64,000 bases of DNA from Clostridia bacterium (GTDB taxonomy: Bacteria > CBDUZB01 > JAGLHV01). The position numbers were made by a program, and so were the translations under genes. Where the stretch lies: positions 2,257-66,256 of the forward strand of contig DAOVVV010000010.1 in assembly GCA_030637025.1 (NCBI GenBank). The letters are read 5' to 3'. Below are positions 4,508 to 48,650 of the stretch, in pieces (position 1 is the stretch's first letter; every line of letters starts with the position of its first letter). Under the pieces are notes generated by a model. That model had not been told where the DNA came from. It was given only the letters and a program-made list of their open reading frames with translations, and made no database searches.

Positions 4508-4582
4508 CTGTCATTCCGCACTCGATGCGGAATCTATAATGTTTTTAAATATCAATAGATTCCTGCTTCCGCAGGAATGACA
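4508..4582. repeat. Composite REP-like element: two opposed hairpins (gtcattccgcactcgatgcggaatc … gattcctgcttccgcaggaatgaca) bounded by inverted tgtcattcc/ggaatgaca termini
   Basis: About 90% identical to 47755-47829. Each arm is a perfect 8-9 bp stem-loop. Confidence 0.85.
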
Positions 4583-5850: not shown

Positions 5851-6068
5851 TTCGCAGGAGTGACATTGATTTATTATTGTTGTCGTTCCCAATGTTGTTT
5901 CCCGCCTTTGAAAAAAGTGTAAACGATGTCCCCGGTTTAAAATGTAAACCATGTTTGTGTTGCACATTTGTTAGATACCCCACAGCAAGTTAATTTAAAT
6001 TTTGCCATGTAAAAAATCTTATCTCTTTATGTGTGTTTTTTTCATCCCCGGAAATTTATTATTTTTTT

Positions 6069-10095: not shown

Positions 10096-10122
10096 GTCAT
10101 TCCTGTGCAAACAGGAATCTAT
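10096..10122. repeat. Family A REP hairpin
   Basis: gtcattcctgtgcaaacaggaatctat. Confidence 0.85.
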
Positions 10123-10175
10123 TTTTTGTCTTTAGAATTTGCTGGAGCAGAGAGACGAAGCAATTTTAAACTGTT

Positions 10176-10202
10176 GTCATTCCTGCGAAAGCAGGAATCT
10201 AT
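10176..10202. repeat. Family A REP hairpin (gtcattcctgcgaaagcaggaatctat), preceded by the ttgctggagca…gcaattttaaa module
   Basis: Module+hairpin 10135-10202 recurs at 11307-11369. A related fragment is at 9123-9175. Confidence 0.85.
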
Positions 10203-11112: not shown

Positions 11113-11138
11113 GTCATTCCTGCGAAAGCAGGAATCTA
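11113..11138. repeat. Family A REP hairpin
   Basis: gtcattcctgcgaaagcaggaatcta. Followed at 11147-11200 by the variant gtcattccgctccgcctgaggcg…gataaggcgg. Confidence 0.85.
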
Positions 11139-11342
11139 AAACAGTTGTCATTCCGCTCCGCCTGAGGCGCTTGTCCGCCTCTGGAGGAGATAAGGCGGAT
11201 ATAGAATTTAGATATTAGTATTTATTCTTTGCATTTGTTTCTGTCTATGAACTGTCTTTTATATTTATCTGTTGTCTTTGTCTATGGACTATTTCATTTA
11301 GAATTTTGCTGGAGCAAAGAGACGGAGCAATTTTAAAGTGTT

Positions 11343-11369
11343 GTCATTCCTGCGAAAGCAGGAATCTAT
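11343..11369. repeat. Family A REP hairpin
   Basis: gtcattcctgcgaaagcaggaatctat. Confidence 0.85.
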
Positions 11370-13301: not shown

Positions 13302-13329
13302 ATCGTCATTCCGCTTGTGTTTTTATATT

Positions 13330-13356
13330 GTCATTCCGCACTTGATGCGGAATCCA
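13330..13356. repeat. Family A REP hairpin (gtcattccgcacttgatgcggaatcca)
   Basis: Same arm type as 4510 and 47757. A half-copy cgtcattccgcttgtg lies just upstream at 13304. Confidence 0.8.
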
Positions 13357-31409: not shown

Positions 31410-32179
31410 ATGAAATATATCAAAATGGCAGTAAAGAATGTGATTCCAAAGAAATATTATACTTTAGTGAGGAGTATTTATTCTTCCATTAAATATTTTG
31501 GTTTGCGTTTTAAATGTCCCTGTTGTGGAGGAAATTTTCGTAAATTTCTATCTTGTGGTATTAAATTACGAAGAAATGCTTTATGTCCTAGGTGTGGATC
31601 TTTAGAACGACATCGTCTTTTGTACTTATACCTCAAAGATAAAACCAATTTTTTTAGTGAACAGTTAAGAGTTTTTGATATTGCTCCCATGTATTTTTTT
31701 GCAAAAAAATGTAAGAAGTTGAAAAAACTTAATTATATTAGTGTTGATATTTTATCTCCAATAGCAATGGTTAAAATGGACATTAGAAATATTAGTTTCT
31801 CTAATAATCAATTTGATTGTATAATTTGTTACCATGTTCTTGAACATATTCTTGATGATGAAAAAGCAATGAGAGAATTGTATAGAATCTTAAAGCCGGG
31901 TGGTTGGGCAATATTGCAATCACCTATAGATTACAATCGCGAGAAGACTTTAGAGGATTCTAATATCGTGTCACCTACGAGCGAGAGCGTTTTTTTGGAC
32001 AAAAAAGCCATGTTAGGATATATGGGCAAGACTATAAAGATAGACTTGAAAAGGCAGGGTTTATTGTGAAACTTGATAACTATGTTAGAGAACTAGGAAA
32101 TAATATCATCAAAAAATATGGTTTGGATAAGAATGAGAGTATATATTATTGTACCAAATCAAAATCAAAAGGGAATTAG
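31410..32179 (+). pseudogene. Class I SAM-dependent methyltransferase (Methyltransf_11-like) with an N-terminal Zn-ribbon. Interrupted by a -1/+2 frameshift near 31995-32010 (a T7/A6 homopolymer tract).
   Basis: The ORF 31410..32069 ends prematurely. The alternative frame continues …VRIYGQDYKDRLEKAGFIVKL…SKSKGN* to the TAG at 32177-32179, which is the typical methyltransferase C-terminus. The shift maps to gtttttttggacaaaaaagcc. Confidence 0.5.
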
Positions 32180-32260
32180 GGGACGTAGTTTAAAGGTTAA
32201 AAGTATTGATATATGATTGAAAAAAGGATAAACGAAACGTATGCCAAGAGAAGCCAGAAT
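32174..32260 (+). repeat. Left copy of an ~87-bp direct repeat (RAYT promoter region plus the first 7 codons ATGCCAAGAGAAGCCAGAAT) lying upstream of the Fic gene
   Basis: About 90% identical to 33640-33726. Overlaps the 3' end of the frameshifted methyltransferase. Confidence 0.8.
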
Positions 32261-32432
32261 TTTGAGGGACGTTGTCAATTTGTCAAGTTGTGATAAAAAA
32301 AGAAGAGATTAATAAAAAAGAGAAGATGTAAAGGAGAGGGGAAGAAGTAACTAAAAATAAAGCAAAAGTAATAGAAAAGATAATTAGTTAATAAAGGATG
32401 CAACGTTCCCTATATTGCTTGGAGGTATTGAG

Positions 32433-33566
32433 ATGAATCTTAAAGATTTTAAAGCTGGTGTTTATAGACAACAATATCAATATAAAAGTTTTCTACCTGA
32501 AAAAATAAATCATCCATGGATTTGGGATGATCCTAAAATCAATGTCCTATTAGAAAAAGCCACTCAATCATTAGGTGAACTTAATGCATTTTCACTTATT
32601 GTTCCAGATGTAGATGTTTTTATTCAAATGCATATTGTCAAAGAAGCACAAGCGTCAAGCAAAATAGAAGGTACAAAAACCAACATAGATGAAGCAATAA
32701 TGGATAAGAATGTTATAGTTCCTGAAAAAAGGGATGACTGGCAAGAAGTAAAAAACTATATAGCGGCAATGAAATATGCTATTAGGAAACTTGAGAAGTT
32801 ACCATTAAGCAACAGATTATTAAAAGGGATGCATAAAATTTTATTGATGGGGGCTCGTGGCAAACACAAATTACCAGGAGAGTTTCGTAGAACCCAAAAC
32901 TGGTTTGGAGGTTCAAGCCCATCAGATGCTGTTTTTGTACCACCAACCCATGATGAAGTACCGGAGCTTATGGGCGACATTGAAAAGTTTTTGCACAACG
33001 AAGAGATAGAAGTTCCTCATCTTATCAAAATAGCAATTGGGCATTATCAATTCGAGACTGTTCATCCATTTAATGATGGAAATGGCCGTTGTGGCAGATT
33101 GATGATAACATTTTATTTAGTTGCAAATAAATTGCTTATTAAACCTTCATTATATTTATCTGATTTCTTTGAAAAAAACAGAATATCTTATTATGACGCG
33201 CTTTCTCGTGTACGAGAAAGTAACGATTTATCACACTGGATAAAATTTTTCTTAAATGGAATTACAGTGACTGCAGAAAAAGGGAAGAAAACATTTCAAG
33301 GAATATTGAAACTTAAAAATGATATCGACGCAAAAATAGTAAAACTCAACAGAAAAGCTGAAAGAGGAAGAGAATTTGTTCATTACCTTTATAGTAAACC
33401 AATAGTAAGTATTAATGATGTAGTTAATTTTTTTAAGATAACTAAAAAGTCTGCCATTTCTTTGGTTAGTGATTTTGAGAAATTAGGAATATTAAAGGAG
33501 TTAACTGGATATAAAAGAAATAAACTATTTGCTTTTAGTGATTATTTGGAATTGTTCTTAAAGTAA
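32433..33566 (+). CDS. Fic/DOC-family protein (class II Fic with an N-terminal inhibitory SxxxEG helix), predicted AMPylator
   Basis: Canonical active-site motif HPFNDGNGRCGRL (HxFx[D/E]GNGRxxR). N-terminal ASSKIEGT carries the [S/T]xxxE[G/N] inhibitory motif. C-terminal wHTH-like tail. Start chosen at 32433 (ggaggtattgag-ATG). Confidence 0.8.
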   Translation: MNLKDFKAGVYRQQYQYKSFLPEKINHPWIWDDPKINVLLEKATQSLGELNAFSLIVPDVDVFIQMHIVKEAQASSKIEGTKTNIDEAIMDKNVIVPEKRDDWQEVKNYIAAMKYAIRKLEKLPLSNRLLKGMHKILLMGARGKHKLPGEFRRTQNWFGGSSPSDAVFVPPTHDEVPELMGDIEKFLHNEEIEVPHLIKIAIGHYQFETVHPFNDGNGRCGRLMITFYLVANKLLIKPSLYLSDFFEKNRISYYDALSRVRESNDLSHWIKFFLNGITVTAEKGKKTFQGILKLKNDIDAKIVKLNRKAERGREFVHYLYSKPIVSINDVVNFFKITKKSAISLVSDFEKLGILKELTGYKRNKLFAFSDYLELFLK

Positions 33567-33634
33567 ACTATAAAAATCCATAGTTTACTTTAAGGCATCA
33601 AAGTAAACTATAAAAATCCATAGTTTACTTTGAT
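33567..33634. repeat. Two tandem copies of the hairpin aagtaaactataaaaatccatagtttactt (11-bp stem), between Fic and RAYT
   Basis: Read directly. Perfect palindromic arms. No U-tail. Confidence 0.8.
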
Positions 33635-33639
33635 AAAGG

Positions 33640-33726
33640 ATTAAGGGACGTAGTTTAAAAGTTTAAAGTATTGACATATGATTGAAAAAAGGATAAACTA
33701 AGCCTATGCCAAGAGAAGCCAGAATA
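33640..33726 (+). repeat. Right copy of the ~87-bp direct repeat: the authentic RAYT promoter and 5' coding end
   Basis: See 32174-32260. Confidence 0.8.
33671..33699 (+). promoter_or_regulatory. Putative RAYT promoter TTGACA-N17-TAAACT inside the right direct repeat
   Basis: ttgaca 33671-33676, taaact 33694-33699. The left-repeat copy is degenerate (ttgata…taaacg). Confidence 0.45.
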
Positions 33727-34695
33727 GATTATCCAGGAGCTCTGCACCATGTAATTGGAAGAGGGATAGAAAGAAGTAAAATATTTGAAGAGGATACGGA
33801 TAAGGAAAAGTTTTTACTTCGATTAAAGTTACTATTAGATAAGAGTGGTATGCAATGTTATGCATGGTGTATTATGGATAATCATTTTCATTTGTTACTT
33901 CTTACCGGGAAAACCCCGTTATCAGAATTCATGAGAAAATTACTAACGGGATATGCTGTTAATTATAATAAAGAGCACAAGAGAATTGGTCATTTATTTC
34001 AAAATAGATATAAATCAATATTATGTGATAGGGATGAATATTTGTTGCCGCTAATAAGATATATACATTTAAATCCGGTAAGAGTGAAAAAAGTGGAGAT
34101 AAATAAATTGCCTGGATATAAATGGACAAGTCATAAAGAAATGATAAATAAGCAGAAGAAAGAAGATAAATTAATAGAAGCAGAAGAAGTCTTGGGATAT
34201 TTTGGGAAGAGGAGAAAGGAATCAATAGCAGGATATGTAGAATATGTTAGAGAAGGAAAAGAATTAAGAGAAGATTATGGGGGAGGGGGATTAATAAGGA
34301 GGGCAGGAGGAATAAAAGAAATATTGAAGAGAAAAGCTGAGGAGCGAGAGCTGTATGATGAGCGGATATTAGGGTCGGGAGGATTTGTAGAAGAAACCTT
34401 GAGGAGGATGGAGCAAGAAGAAGATAAATATCCAAAGATCAGGAATATAGAGGAGCTAATAGGGAGAATCAGCAGGTATTATGGTATAGAAGTAGAAGAG
34501 ATAATAGAAACGAGGAAAAAGAAAGTAAGAGAAGCGAGGAGTGTATTAGTATATTTGGCGAGTAAATATTTAAAGGAAACAGGGGTAAAAATAGGAAAGT
34601 TGTTGGGAGTAGGAAAAGGAGCGATAAGTATAGCAAAAGAAAAAGGTAGAAATTTTTGTAAAGAGAAAGGGATTGAGGGGCACATATTACAATAA
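33706..34695 (+). mobile_element. REP-associated tyrosine transposase (RAYT; IS200-like Y1 HuH family) with a C-terminal DnaA-C-like HTH extension. Intact.
   Basis: HuH motif (DNHFHLLL), catalytic-Tyr region (FQNRYKS), and the RAYT-specific Y-I-H-L-N-P-V-R motif. No IS terminal inverted repeats. Surrounded by REP-like hairpins. Its own TTGACA-N17-TAAACT promoter is at 33671-33699. Confidence 0.75.
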
Positions 34696-34950
34696 ATTAA
34701 ACAATTGAGCAGCGTCCTTAAAATGATATGATAGGTTTTATTGAAAGCAAAAAATATTTTATGCAATAGTAAATGTTGTTTTGTACATAAAATATTGTTG
34801 TTTTGTGCATAATTGTATGGTATAGGATTTTGAAGCACAACGGAGTTTACTTGGTTGACTTAAAGGGAAAATTAGTAAACGGTCTTAGAATAAAAGAATT
34901 GGAGTTAGATTTTTACATTTTACATTAAAGATAAAAATAATGCTAAATGG

Positions 34951-34977
34951 ATAGATTCCTGCTTTTGCAGGAATGAC
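34951..34977. repeat. Family A REP hairpin in reverse orientation (atagattcctgcttttgcaggaatgac), directly downstream of the RAYT
   Basis: Read directly. Followed by the ccgcctcaggcgg module. Confidence 0.85.
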
Positions 34978-35007
34978 CCGACTAATCCTCCGCCTCAGGC
35001 GGATAAG

Positions 35008-35056
35008 GCGGAGCGGGCAGGCAACAAGGGAAGAAGGCTATTTTGCAGAAGGCTAA
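35008..35056. repeat. About 50-bp gene-proximal module …agcgggcaggcaacaagggaagaaggctattttgcagaaggctaa
   Basis: Also at 47845-47890 and 48604-48650. Each copy ends 30-100 bp upstream of a start codon (35153, 47919, 48674). Confidence 0.75.
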
Positions 35057-35152
35057 ATGCTCATTAAAATAAGGAGGGGACAGTTGGTTGTATGTTTTTC
35101 CATATGGTAAAATTATAAAAATTAAACGAGAAGGGTTAAGGAGAGATTTATT

Positions 35153-35620: not shown

Positions 35621-36529
35621 ATGGAAATTTTGATTGTTTTTTTGGGTAGTTTGTTGGTTTCTTTGTTGATGATACCTTTGATAATGAAAATAGCAATAAA
35701 GAAAAGTTTTTTTGACCGGCCGGAAAATGTTTTAAAAATCCACAAAGAGCCCATCCCGCATTTGGGAGGGGTGGCTATTTTTATTAGTTTGGTGGTGGGG
35801 TTAATTACTGCCGGTTTTTTATTGGAATCATTTAAGTTTGCCGGAATTATAAGTATGGTTGTTGCTGCGGGTATAGTTTTTTTTATGGGTTTATGGGATG
35901 ATTTTAAAGAAGTTAAACCTGTTTATCGGTTTATAGCCCAGATAAGTGCAGGAATTATTCTGGTTTTGTCCGGATATAAAATAGGTTTTGTCAATTGTCC
36001 GGGTTTGAGCGGGATTTTGATTGTTCTTTATGTTTTAGGTTCGATAAACAGTATGAATTTACTGGATGGGATAGATGGATTAGCTGCCGGGGTGACCTTA
36101 ATTATTGGCTTGGGATTTTTAACGGCTTTTATTATGCAGGCTAATTTTTTTGGAATAGTTGTATCACTTATCTTTATTGGGGCGGTATGGGGTTTTTTAC
36201 CTTATAATTTTCCTAAAGCGTTTATATTTATGGGAGATAACGGAAGTACGCTTCTGGGGTTTATCTTAGCTTTTTTAGCCATAAATCTTGCTCAGTCCTC
36301 TGAGTTTAGCTGGTTTATTGCCTCGGTTGTGATTATGGGAGTGCCTATCATTGACACAGCGGTAGCAATTGCAAGGAGAATAATAAAGAAACGGCCGATT
36401 TTCCAGGGGGATCGCAGTCATATTTATGATTGGTTAATGGATAAAGGGATGAGTTCGAAAGAAACGGTATTTATTTTTTGCATAGCGGGGTTTGTTTTTC
36501 TTGTTATAGGATTGGTGGTGGGGGTATAA
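35621..36529 (+). CDS. Polyprenyl-phosphate HexNAc-1-phosphate transferase (WecA/MraY family, GT4-PNPT), the initiating phosphoglycosyl transferase
   Basis: Polytopic. Conserved PNPT motifs: …FMGLWDDFKEVKP…, NSMNLLDGIDGLAAG, FMGDNGSTLLGF. Start at 35621 (aggagtaaag-ATG) preferred over the track start at 35582. Confidence 0.8.
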   Translation: MEILIVFLGSLLVSLLMIPLIMKIAIKKSFFDRPENVLKIHKEPIPHLGGVAIFISLVVGLITAGFLLESFKFAGIISMVVAAGIVFFMGLWDDFKEVKPVYRFIAQISAGIILVLSGYKIGFVNCPGLSGILIVLYVLGSINSMNLLDGIDGLAAGVTLIIGLGFLTAFIMQANFFGIVVSLIFIGAVWGFLPYNFPKAFIFMGDNGSTLLGFILAFLAINLAQSSEFSWFIASVVIMGVPIIDTAVAIARRIIKKRPIFQGDRSHIYDWLMDKGMSSKETVFIFCIAGFVFLVIGLVVGV

Positions 36530-36778
36530 AGACGGTTAAAAGGCGGTTGAATTGGTTTAGATTGGTTTTATTGGTTAGAAAAGAAAAGATAAAAGACAGT
36601 TAAAGACAGTTAAAGACAGTTGGAAAAGACGGTTAAAAGGCGGTTGAATTGGTTTAGATTGGTTTAATCGGTTAGAAAAGAAAAGATAAAAGACAGTTAA
36701 AGACAGTTGGAAAAGACGGTTAAAAGACGGTTGAATTGGTTTAGATTGGTTTTATTGGTTGAAAAGATAAAAGAGACC
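36527..36778. repeat. About 87-bp tandem repeat, ~2.9 copies (aaagacggttaaaaggcggttgaattggtttagattggttttattggttagaaaagaaaagataaaagacagttaaagacagtt…)
   Basis: Read directly. Partial related copies at 50549-50622 and 52228-52268. Confidence 0.85.
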
Positions 36779-36896
36779 TAAAGACAGTCGATAGTCCATA
36801 GACTACAGATAAAGACAAAAGACAAAGACAAAGACAAAGACAAAGACAAAAGACAAAAGACAGAGACAGAGACAGAGACAACGACTAAAGACAAAG
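36779..36896. repeat. 'tccatag' unit (reverse orientation) followed by an (AAAGAC)n/(AGAGAC)n hexanucleotide tract of ~85 bp
   Basis: taaagacagtcgatagtccatagactacag, then aaagacaaaagacaaagacaaagacaaagacaaagacaaaagacaaaagacagagacagagacagagac. Confidence 0.85.
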
Positions 36897-36897
36897 A

Positions 36898-36924
36898 ATA
36901 GATTCCTGTTTGCACGGGAATGAC
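36898..36924. repeat. Family A REP hairpin in reverse orientation (atagattcctgtttgcacgggaatgac)
   Basis: Reverse complement of the 9091 type. Confidence 0.8.
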
Positions 36925-47754: not shown

Positions 47755-47829
47755 CTGTCATTCCGCACTTGATATGGAATCTATAATGTGCTTGAAATAT
47801 CAATAGATTCCTGCTTTCGCAGGAATGAC
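47755..47829. repeat. Second copy of the 75-bp composite REP-pair element
   Basis: ctgtcattccgcacttgatatggaatctataatgtgcttgaaatatcaatagattcctgctttcgcaggaatgacc versus the copy at 4508. Confidence 0.85.
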
Positions 47830-47844
47830 CCTCTTTAAGGACTG

Positions 47845-47890
47845 GCGGGCAGGCAATAAAGATAAAAAGACTATTTTGCAAAAGTCTAAA
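47845..47890. repeat. 50-bp gene-proximal module copy (ggcgggcaggcaataaagataaaaagactattttgcaaaagtctaa)
   Basis: See 35008. Confidence 0.7.
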
Positions 47891-47918
47891 AATATTTAAA
47901 AAAAGGAGGTAATATAAA

Positions 47919-48512: not shown

Positions 48513-48587
48513 GATTGTATGGCCTTGCATAGTTGATTTCATTTGTTAATTTTGTATAATTAAAAGGGTAGGAATGACCCGTCTTAT

Positions 48588-48650
48588 CCGCCTGAGGCGG
48601 AGCGGGCAGGCAAAAAAGGTAAAAAGGCTATTTTGCAGAAGTCTAATTAT
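48588..48650. repeat. ccgcctgaggcgg hairpin plus a 50-bp gene-proximal module copy
   Basis: ccgcctgaggcggagcgggcaggcaaaaaaggtaaaaaggctattttgcagaagtctaa. Confidence 0.75.

Follow-up and report, generated by a model that had tools for sequence, protein, structure and literature searches.

A SoFic-type fic gene of apparent type I restriction-modification origin between TIRtron-family ends in a Clostridia glycan locus: a possible composite-transposon-like unit

In a 64,000-nt stretch of contig DAOVVV010000010.1 from a Clostridia bacterium (assembly GCA_030637025.1), hereafter called the window, an intact fic gene is embedded in a 2.5-kb block (32175-34719) within a glycan locus. From left to right, this block contains a solo left end of a TIRtron, i.e. 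of a unit in which a TIRYT transposase gene is surrounded by terminal inverted repeats (TIRs), a miniature inverted-repeat transposable element (MITE), the last 19 nt or so of an hsdM gene followed by fic and a hairpin spacer, and finally an intact TIRtron. Judged by DNA homology, the fic segment is a fragment of an hsdM-fic-hsdS operon of a type I restriction-modification (R-M) system, and both of its junctions are found at, or a few nt from, the ends of TIR elements of the same orientation. In our view, this arrangement is best explained by TIRYT-family elements having relocated fic, with a probability of about one half, and we put the chance that positions 32175-34719 form a composite-transposon-like unit of such elements at the same level. 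Coordinates are positions within the window; L-numbers designate related loci and contigs, fetched for comparison from the genomes and contigs encoding the closest proteins.

The block is framed by a direct repeat. A repeat search of the window delimited two copies of 86 nt, 32175-32260 and 33640-33725, identical at 79 of 86 positions (92%), in agreement with an initial annotation of the sequence that had paired 32174-32260 with 33640-33726 at about 90% identity; BLAST lengthens the repeat to ~93 nt, with 90% identity and gaps. These copies are the only ones within the window. In the same way, 30 nt taken from the leader were detected at the two repeat sites only, as was the 20-nt sequence ATGCCAAGAGAAGCCAGAAT, where shuffled sequences give an expectation of 0 for each. 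The leader is not a generic promoter. The right copy opens into an intact open reading frame (ORF) of 329 aa (33706-34695). In the left copy, the likeness to this gene ends after nucleotide 20 of the ORF (codon 7); the frame had been described as dying at this point, but it runs past the likeness for 23 codons in all (MPREARILRDVVNLSSCDKKRRD, followed by a stop). A promoter element had also been assigned to each copy. The right one has a good promoter-like site (TTGACA-17-TAAACT, 10/12, at 33671-33699), whereas that of the left copy is degraded (TTGATA...TAAACG, 32206-32234). The scan returned 20 promoter-like sites for 14.3 expected, an excess too small for the scan alone to be informative; it gave no intrinsic terminator, and no Rfam RNA family was found in the region.

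From the positions of the motif GGGACGT[TA]G and from the ends common to the whole family (see below), it follows that the 86-nt repeat is more than a promoter with a few first codons: it is the left end of an element, in which a TIR and its sub-repeats are followed by a promoter-like site and by the initial 20 nt of the gene. In the solo copy (LE_A, 32175-32260, forward strand, like all features of the block), the TIR GGGGACGTAG and two sub-repeats of ~9 nt occupy 32179-32203 and the truncated TIRYT ORF lies at 32241-32260. LE_A is also 86% identical to the left end of the element in L082, and its architecture is that of the ends of eight related elements. The left repeat is therefore, as initially annotated, a truncated copy of the 5' region of the transposase gene.

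The product of the intact gene matches the Pfam families Y1_Tnp (E 1.6e-11) and Bac_DnaA_C (E 1.6e-08, residues 248-301), and its HFH (residues 60-62) and YIHLNP (residues 119-124) motifs are intact. Its protein family is very large (at least 7,986 members at E<1e-10), and most of the named members are from Candidatus Omnitrophota. No relative was detectable in the PDB by phmmer, no PADLOC model matched the Y1 protein, and exact look-ups of the Fic and TIRYT proteins of the window retrieved no record. The usual view of RAYT-like Y1 transposases is that they are domesticated, or that their mobility is unknown, and no passenger genes would be expected with them. The gene had been annotated as a RAYT, and it does share with RAYT/REPIN systems the protein superfamily and the RAYT-like HUH and Y motifs, its best NCBIfam match being REP_Tyr_transpos. 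It nevertheless scores only 57.2 bits against the RAYT model NF047646 (cutoff 80), possesses an additional DnaA-like domain, and is flanked by TIRs instead of repetitive extragenic palindrome (REP) hairpins: about 14 dispersed ATAGATTCCTGC..GCAGGAATGACA hairpins are present in the window, and none of them is located at the gene ends or forms a REP pair bracketing it. It was concluded that this transposase gene is a TIRYT gene in a TIRtron, and not a REP-associated RAYT.

This assignment is in line with the literature. In Quentin et al. (2018, PMC6006769), subclass 2.1 of TnpA_REP is defined by a C-terminal helix-turn-helix (HTH) extension (Bac_DnaA_C, HTH_23 or HTH_28), and Y1 proteins with a Bac_DnaA_C-like C-terminus constitute subclass 2.1.2, next to which no REPs were found; Di Nocera et al. 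(2013, PMC3733652) gave the name TIRYT to such genes, bordered by terminal inverted repeats with a common GGGGWSAS, and the name TIRtron to the resulting units. The element of the window has the same RAYT-like Y1 HUH core (HFH, catalytic Y) followed by a C-terminal Bac_DnaA_C HTH, the same kind of TIRs, with an initial G-run and a constant spacing to the gene, no flanking REPs, and solo as well as clustered TIR copies. It differs in that its TIR, GGGGACGT(T/A)G, fits GGGGWS but has G at position 7 and not the A of GGGGWSAS. Furthermore, the parts of these two TIRtron accounts (PMC3733652, PMC6006769) on which we drew mention no passenger genes, no left-end stutter, no insertions beside defence genes and no MITEs in which an internal module is conserved. 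With IS200/IS605 elements, TIRtrons have in common a single-domain Y1 HUH catalytic core and a short conserved sequence that borders the recognised end motif on its outer side; in 7 of 10 elements, moreover, the left end directly follows TA or TTA. In contrast, the ends of IS200/IS605 are subterminal hairpins without TIRs, whereas those of TIRtrons are TIRs with internal 9-nt direct repeats, and the protein has an HTH domain.

The ends themselves are conserved across the family. In eight related TIRYT genes (L001-L006, L082 and L090), the sequence (T)AGGGGACGTTGTTT... precedes the ATG by 61-66 nt and, where the 3' flank is readable, its reverse complement occurs ~25 nt or less from the stop codon. 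The TIRs of L001 and L006, which begin with GGGGACGTTG, are perfect over 24-26 bp. Alignment of 23 ends gave a G-run followed by ACGT(T/A)G; two direct sub-repeats of ~9 nt (e.g. GTTTAAAA GTTTAAAG) are carried by all left ends and by all right ends of TIRtrons, and are absent from the right ends of MITEs. The motif GGGACGT[TA]G was matched 16 times in 74 kb of TIRtron loci versus 3 times in 1.3 Mb of unrelated control loci. Its sites in the window are 32179 (LE_A), 32266 (left end of the MITE) and 33645 (LE_B, left end of the intact element), with a reverse copy at 32411 (right end of the MITE) and a degenerate form at 34719 (RE_B, right end of the intact element).

The intact element, TIRtron B, extends from 33640 to 34719, as established from the Pfam domains of its gene, DNA homology, TIR comparison and the promoter scan. 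Its left TIR (AAGGGACGTAG..., 33644-33668) precedes the promoter-like site and the TIRYT gene, and its right TIR (...GCAGCGTCCTT, 34709-34719) is degenerate. The homology of the window with L082, which encodes an 80%-identical TIRYT protein and no fic, and with L090 (75%-identical protein) is confined to 33634/33648-34717; as the surroundings are different, TIRtron B is a discrete, conserved unit of ~1.08 kb. Its right boundary may yet be farther to the right. An internally deleted relative, L042 (2275-2509), is 83% identical to 34530-34783 of the window, and the 46 nt that the two have in common beyond the TIR (34738-34783, within a possible extension 34720-34783) are 91% identical, the right TIR being degenerate in both; the true end may then be 34783. 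The unit had initially been drawn to 34977. It ends at ~34719, or possibly 34783, and the hairpin at 34946-34977 is a copy of a dispersed repeat unrelated to it. In base composition the block is unremarkable, with 31.5% GC for fic and 33.9% for the TIRtron in an AT-rich window of 32.6%.

Several further features of TIRtron ends were seen in the related loci. Before most left ends there are 2-4 incomplete copies in tandem, each made of a few flank bases and the beginning of the TIR, with a unit of 8-35 nt. Such stutter is found in L090 (1133-1232; 35, 17 and 13 nt before the full end), L003 (5895-5957; 31 nt, twice), L005 (~2925-2955; 16 nt, twice), L002 (1-34 and 1976-1994; 11 nt, three times), L006 (~5920-5936; 8 nt, twice) and L001 (~5905-5940). 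On the right flank, TAAAATTCCAC is repeated three times after a MITE in L002 (4591-4622). The left-end stutter looks like the footprint of a transposition or replication mechanism. In two unrelated contigs, an IS110-family element (DEDD_Tnp_IS110) splits the TIR at one and the same position (GGGGAC | ...CAATATACA | ACGTTG), in a left end in L082 (8259-9945) and in a right end in L004 (6985-7116), so that the TIR seems to be a specific landing site for this insertion sequence. The deleted TIRtron of L042 (2249-2530), of the same subfamily as TIRtron B, consists of 24 nt of left end fused to the 3'-terminal 165 nt of the gene; it is placed directly 3' of an AbiEii toxin gene (Pfam E 8e-27) and is immediately followed by another stuttered GGGGGGACGTTG end. 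A different TIRYT, of 312 aa, is present in L087 (7830-8850) between perfect 17-bp TIRs, GGGGTCAGGGCTACACA, which fit GGGGWSAS exactly. Shortly after a fic of 85% identity, hsdS is truncated by this TIRtron, and the second half of hsdS is missing.

Between LE_A and the R-M fragment, an imperfect inverted repeat with one extra A (GAGGGACGTTG, 32264-32274, and GCAACGTTCCCT, 32400-32411) bounds 148 bp. The inverted repeat had been noticed initially, in what was regarded as unrelated sequence. From its ends and its right-hand part, this interval (32264-32411) is a MITE of the TIRtron family: the conserved module of ~80 nt at its right recurs twice in L002 (2156-2231 and 4508-4590) with 82-86% identity, both L002 copies being bounded by GGGACGTT(G/C) ... 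GCAACGTCCC, and reads GAGGGGAAGAAGYAACTAAAAAT...ATAATTAGTT..TAAA.GA.GCAACGTCCC. Three homologous copies that share their ends are thereby known from two genomes, and one of the L002 copies overlaps the 3' end of a gene. MITEs typically share only their ends with the autonomous element, and that of the window fits this rule. Two other possibilities were considered and not retained. If 32261-32411 were the decayed 3' part of a TIRYT gene, the left copy would be an internally deleted TIRtron; alignments to element B were no better than those of shuffled sequences (z 0.6 and -0.5), with only the terminal ~11 nt in common. A remnant of TIRYT 5' coding sequence in the longer L002 MITE gave a weak signal (z 2.6, reached by 12 of 500 shuffles) that was not used. 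In viral contigs, neither a TIRYT relative nor a match to the left end was found, and one match to the MITE motif was a chance match inside a phage coding sequence.

The passenger gene, fic (ATG at 32433, 32433-33566), encodes an intact class II Fic AMP-transferase of 377 aa, in accordance with its first description. Pfam recognises Fic_N and Fic, with a weak HTH_13, and the inhibitory motif SSKIEG (SxxxEG) and the active site HPFNDGNGRCGR are both present in one chain. The PADLOC model SoFic (PDLC03963) was matched with an E-value of 4.3e-114, residues 16-377 covering profile positions 4-358 of 361, and the closest solved structures in the PDB are EcSofic and SoFic (E ~1e-30). With the SoFic equivalog of NCBIfam, the score was 171 bits, below the cutoff of 550. 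The queries began at 32427 and so included two extra residues, which did not affect the results. SoFic is a class II Fic protein that protects by abortive infection via AMPylation (PMC12249575). The gene of the window corresponds to this system by the full-length model match, the N-terminal SxxxEG, the HPFx[DE]GNGRxxR active site and the C-terminal HTH-like domain. An AS1-like gene of 47 aa cannot fit downstream, since only 73 nt separate fic from the TIR. A further difference from the SoFic system is one of context, the closest relatives of the window fic being embedded in type I R-M operons and the window copy not. The gene is probably still functional as a stand-alone defence gene acting by abortive infection and AMPylation. 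Its transcription would come from read-through of the co-oriented glycan operon or from the weakened promoter of the left end.

These closest relatives reveal where the segment came from. The nearest Fic proteins are 85-90% identical in amino acids and, where the flank suffices, their gene stands between hsdM and hsdS. Such operons were found in L083/L085/L095, L087, L096 and L176, the fic start overlapping the hsdM stop (ATGA); the HsdM proteins of three operon types are mutually only ~61% identical. Defence genes embedded in type I R-M operons have a precedent in the PrrC anticodon nuclease of the E. coli prr locus. The relatives of fic conform to it, as they overlap the hsdM stop and precede hsdS; at the window locus, by contrast, the R-M partners are gone. 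At the DNA level, 32413-33635 is 87.5% identical to L083 and L176, 83% to L096 and 80% to L087. This homology starts 19 nt before the fic ATG, inside the hsdM coding sequence and 2 nt after the right end of the MITE, the hsdM remnant (32413-32432, homologous to L083 and L176) including a GGAGG ribosome-binding site for fic. On the other side, it ends after the second of two hairpins, with 4-9 nt left to the beginning of element B.

The two hairpins, identical and 32 nt long (33560-33591 and 33600-33631, together 33560-33631, the first overlapping the fic stop), are native to the fic-hsdS spacer and not part of a transposon. They belong to a tandem family that follows fic in R-M operons in 2-4 copies (L083 7126-7203, L096 6125-6245, L175 6583-6745, and also L087), whose members keep the loop ATGGATTTTTAT on covarying stems; the window copies carry this loop in inverted form. 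They might act in termination, serve as a binding site or mark the boundary of a cassette. In L175 (5150-7016), an orphan fic of 89% amino acid identity occurs without hsdM and without TIR motifs. A small ORF, of GIY-YIG type as judged by eye only, occupies the place of hsdM, and four hairpins with only the first ~50 codons of hsdS are found downstream. L175 exemplifies the decay of an R-M operon around fic where no TIR element is present.

The receiving site is equally well delimited. The block interrupts a series of genes, all on the forward strand, for glycosyltransferases (GT1/GT4, GT9, GT2), a hexapeptide acyltransferase, a methyltransferase, a GT4 phospho-sugar transferase, a DegT aminotransferase and a Polysacc_synt_2 dehydratase. 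The earlier description of fic and the Y1 gene as a foreign block in a glycan locus is right. The methyltransferase (31410-32179, class I SAM-dependent, Pfam Methyltransf_11) is part of the left flank and not of the insert, as seen from its reading frames and from full-length homologues. Its frameshift, already noticed, is located near 31968-31975, outside a homopolymer run, and is identical in three assemblies (window, L081 and L089), which makes a real pseudogene or a recoding site probable and a sequencing error not. The repaired protein of 256 aa aligns end to end with homologues of 250-260 aa, down to the same final residue, and the last base of its stop codon TAG (32177-32179) is also the first G of the left TIR. 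The block consequently begins exactly at the end of the methyltransferase and, as the C-terminus is complete and the stop abuts the TIR, represents a clean intergenic insertion. No homologue of the neighbouring 123-aa gene was found in any fetched locus, nor was a related genome carrying fic at this locus.

These elements can be arranged as follows. The right arm would be the intact TIRtron, with its Y1/HUH tyrosine transposase and DnaA-like HTH, bounded by TIRs of the GGGGACGT type; the left arm would be the solo left end together with the 148-bp MITE having the same kind of ends, immobile on its own; and the passenger would be a 1.2-kb piece of R-M operon comprising the last ~19 nt of hsdM, the complete fic and the hairpin spacer normally found before hsdS. 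In the most likely history, TIR elements would have been inserted just upstream and downstream of fic in a donor hsdM-fic-hsdS operon, after which the transposase would pair an outer left end with the right end belonging to the intact element, or bypass the inner left end, and the whole block would move to the TA at the stop codon of the methyltransferase. Compound transposons, and gene capture by end bypass in HUH rolling-circle elements (IS91, ISCR and Helitrons), provide the models for such a process. The likeness resides in a passenger located between two same-oriented ends of one family (LE_A with the MITE at the left, the TIRtron at the right), one of which is defective, with breakpoints at element ends; the difference is that the window elements are Y1 TIRYT units and that neither a target duplication nor a second copy attests to movement of the whole. 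Deletion derivatives and gene-disrupting insertions of TIRtron-family elements elsewhere (L042, L087 and the MITE of L002) speak in the same sense.

Several observations weigh against this reading. The empty site, which would be ...AAAAGGGAATTA joined directly to AAATGATATGATAGG, was not found, the methyltransferase homologues with usable flanks (L091-L094) being 69% identical and in non-syntenic glycan loci. The block was not seen at a second location among ~90 fic loci and 80 Y1 loci, although absence in such samples is weak evidence, and a donor-like intermediate (hsdM-MITE-fic-TIRtron-hsdS) is absent from the ~90 fic loci. The only other assemblies with the block are from the same strain (L081, 99.93%; L089, 100%), and the finding rests on essentially one strain. 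Moreover, there is 8% divergence between the left ends, and element B has a degenerate right TIR (AAGG and not GGGGG), so the unit may be old, a fossil that is no longer mobile. The flanks of the block, TA at the left of LE_A and TTAA at the right of RE_B, are ambiguous, and no target duplication is demonstrable. To our knowledge, transposition has not been experimentally demonstrated for any TIRYT.

The main rival, and a serious one, is decay in situ, which we hold to be possible, if rather unlikely. It supposes that a whole type I R-M operon with fic once stood in the glycan locus, that TIR elements were inserted into it, and that adjacent deletions caused by the transposase, or recombination between copies, removed hsdM, hsdS and hsdR, fic never having been cargo. 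The orphan fic of L175, with its ~50 codons of hsdS and no hsdM, shows that R-M decay can leave such a gene; in L087 a TIRtron sits at the very point where hsdS is truncated and the rest of it gone; defence genes and mobile elements gather together, as in L042 beside AbiEii; and an 8% divergence of the left ends fits a long local history. On the other hand, tblastn gave no significant match to hsdM or hsdS anywhere in the 64-kb window, so that no remnant of hsdM beyond the 19 nt, nor of hsdS, was recognised; the glycan operon is otherwise gene-dense and co-oriented; and about six events would be needed, including two deletions ending exactly at element termini, one of them also at the methyltransferase stop. 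Local history could also have started from the stutter of left ends: the left copy would be a partial tandem duplication of the left end, between the halves of which the MITE and the fic fragment entered later by unrelated events. Partial duplications of the left flank and TIR start are indeed common in the family (L090, L003, L005, L002 and L006), but those known are contiguous and of 8-35 nt, whereas the window copies are 1.4 kb apart, the DNA between them has its own TIR-defined junctions, and no mechanism accounts for the precise arrival of fic; we consider this improbable.

A selected two-gene system, in which Fic and the Y1 protein would act together, for example as a defence or toxin module using the HUH nuclease, might be proposed from the adjacency and common orientation of the genes, 140 nt apart, and from the different TIRYT near fic in L087. 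Yet fic occurs in none of the 80 loci fetched with the transposase protein, and a Y1 gene is near fic in only 2 of ~90 fic loci, namely L152 (1 of 80 metagenome fic loci, 4 kb upstream) and L087 (fetched separately), neither with the arrangement of the window. With no PADLOC model for the Y1 protein and the element's own TIR between the genes as well, a functional pairing is very unlikely. The same counts qualify the initial proposal of a captured cargo gene: passenger gene is a fair description of the outcome, but fic is no regular partner of TIRYT transposases. Finally, a chimeric join at the repeated 86-bp sequence is hardly credible. The short Logan contig L089 does end at 32267, just past the left repeat; the independent 8.9-kb ENA scaffold L081, however, spans the whole block at 99.93% identity, which makes a misassembly unlikely, and repeats that are short and differ at 7 of 86 positions should not collapse.

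The initial observation was thus confirmed and its interpretation partly supported. What is new here is the TIRtron with its own MITE, the compound-transposon-like layout and the SoFic gene taken from a type I R-M operon, these kinds being themselves known. The locus suggests that TIRtrons can carry a passenger gene to a new site. It is a concrete example of a relocated defence gene whose two breakpoints fall at TIRYT-family ends, and it is accompanied by a corresponding MITE family and, in other loci, by deletion derivatives. Should the unit have moved as a whole, TIRYT elements would be added to the vehicles by which anti-phage genes are shuffled; if it did not, the locus would be an ordinary mobile-element junkyard around a decayed R-M system. 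A wider proposal is that TIRYT elements, hitherto regarded as RAYT-like genes with unusual flanks and without demonstrated mobility, are active transposons, producing MITEs and compound units that pull single defence genes from R-M operons and scatter them, and that left-end duplications are the footprints of a nick-primed, replication-coupled mechanism (HUH rolling-circle-like) which bypasses ends and captures neighbouring DNA. We regard it as possible, if rather unlikely. The family-wide anatomy of the ends (G-run, ACGTTG, two 9-nt repeats, TA flank and left-end stutter) provides direct substrates for biochemistry.

Other repeats are dispersed in the window. REP-like hairpins of the form ATAGATTCC(T/G)G(C/T)-loop-(G/A)C(A/G)GGAATGACA, of which there are ~14 good copies, are intergenic and often paired (4511-4580, 9092, 10097-10177, 11114-11344, 13306-13331, 34946-34977, 36893-36924, 42009 and 47758-47828). 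Some are joined to a GC-rich module of ~90 nt (..CCGACTAATCCTCCGCCTCAGGCGGATAAGGCGGAGCGGGCAGGC..), at 34969-35077, 47803-47909 and 48570-48646, with 69-78% identity between copies, which is odd for a genome of 32% GC. Between the GT4 phospho-sugar transferase and DegT genes, three tandem repeats of ~87 bp (36528-36795) are followed by AAAGAC/AGAGAC simple repeats up to 36960.

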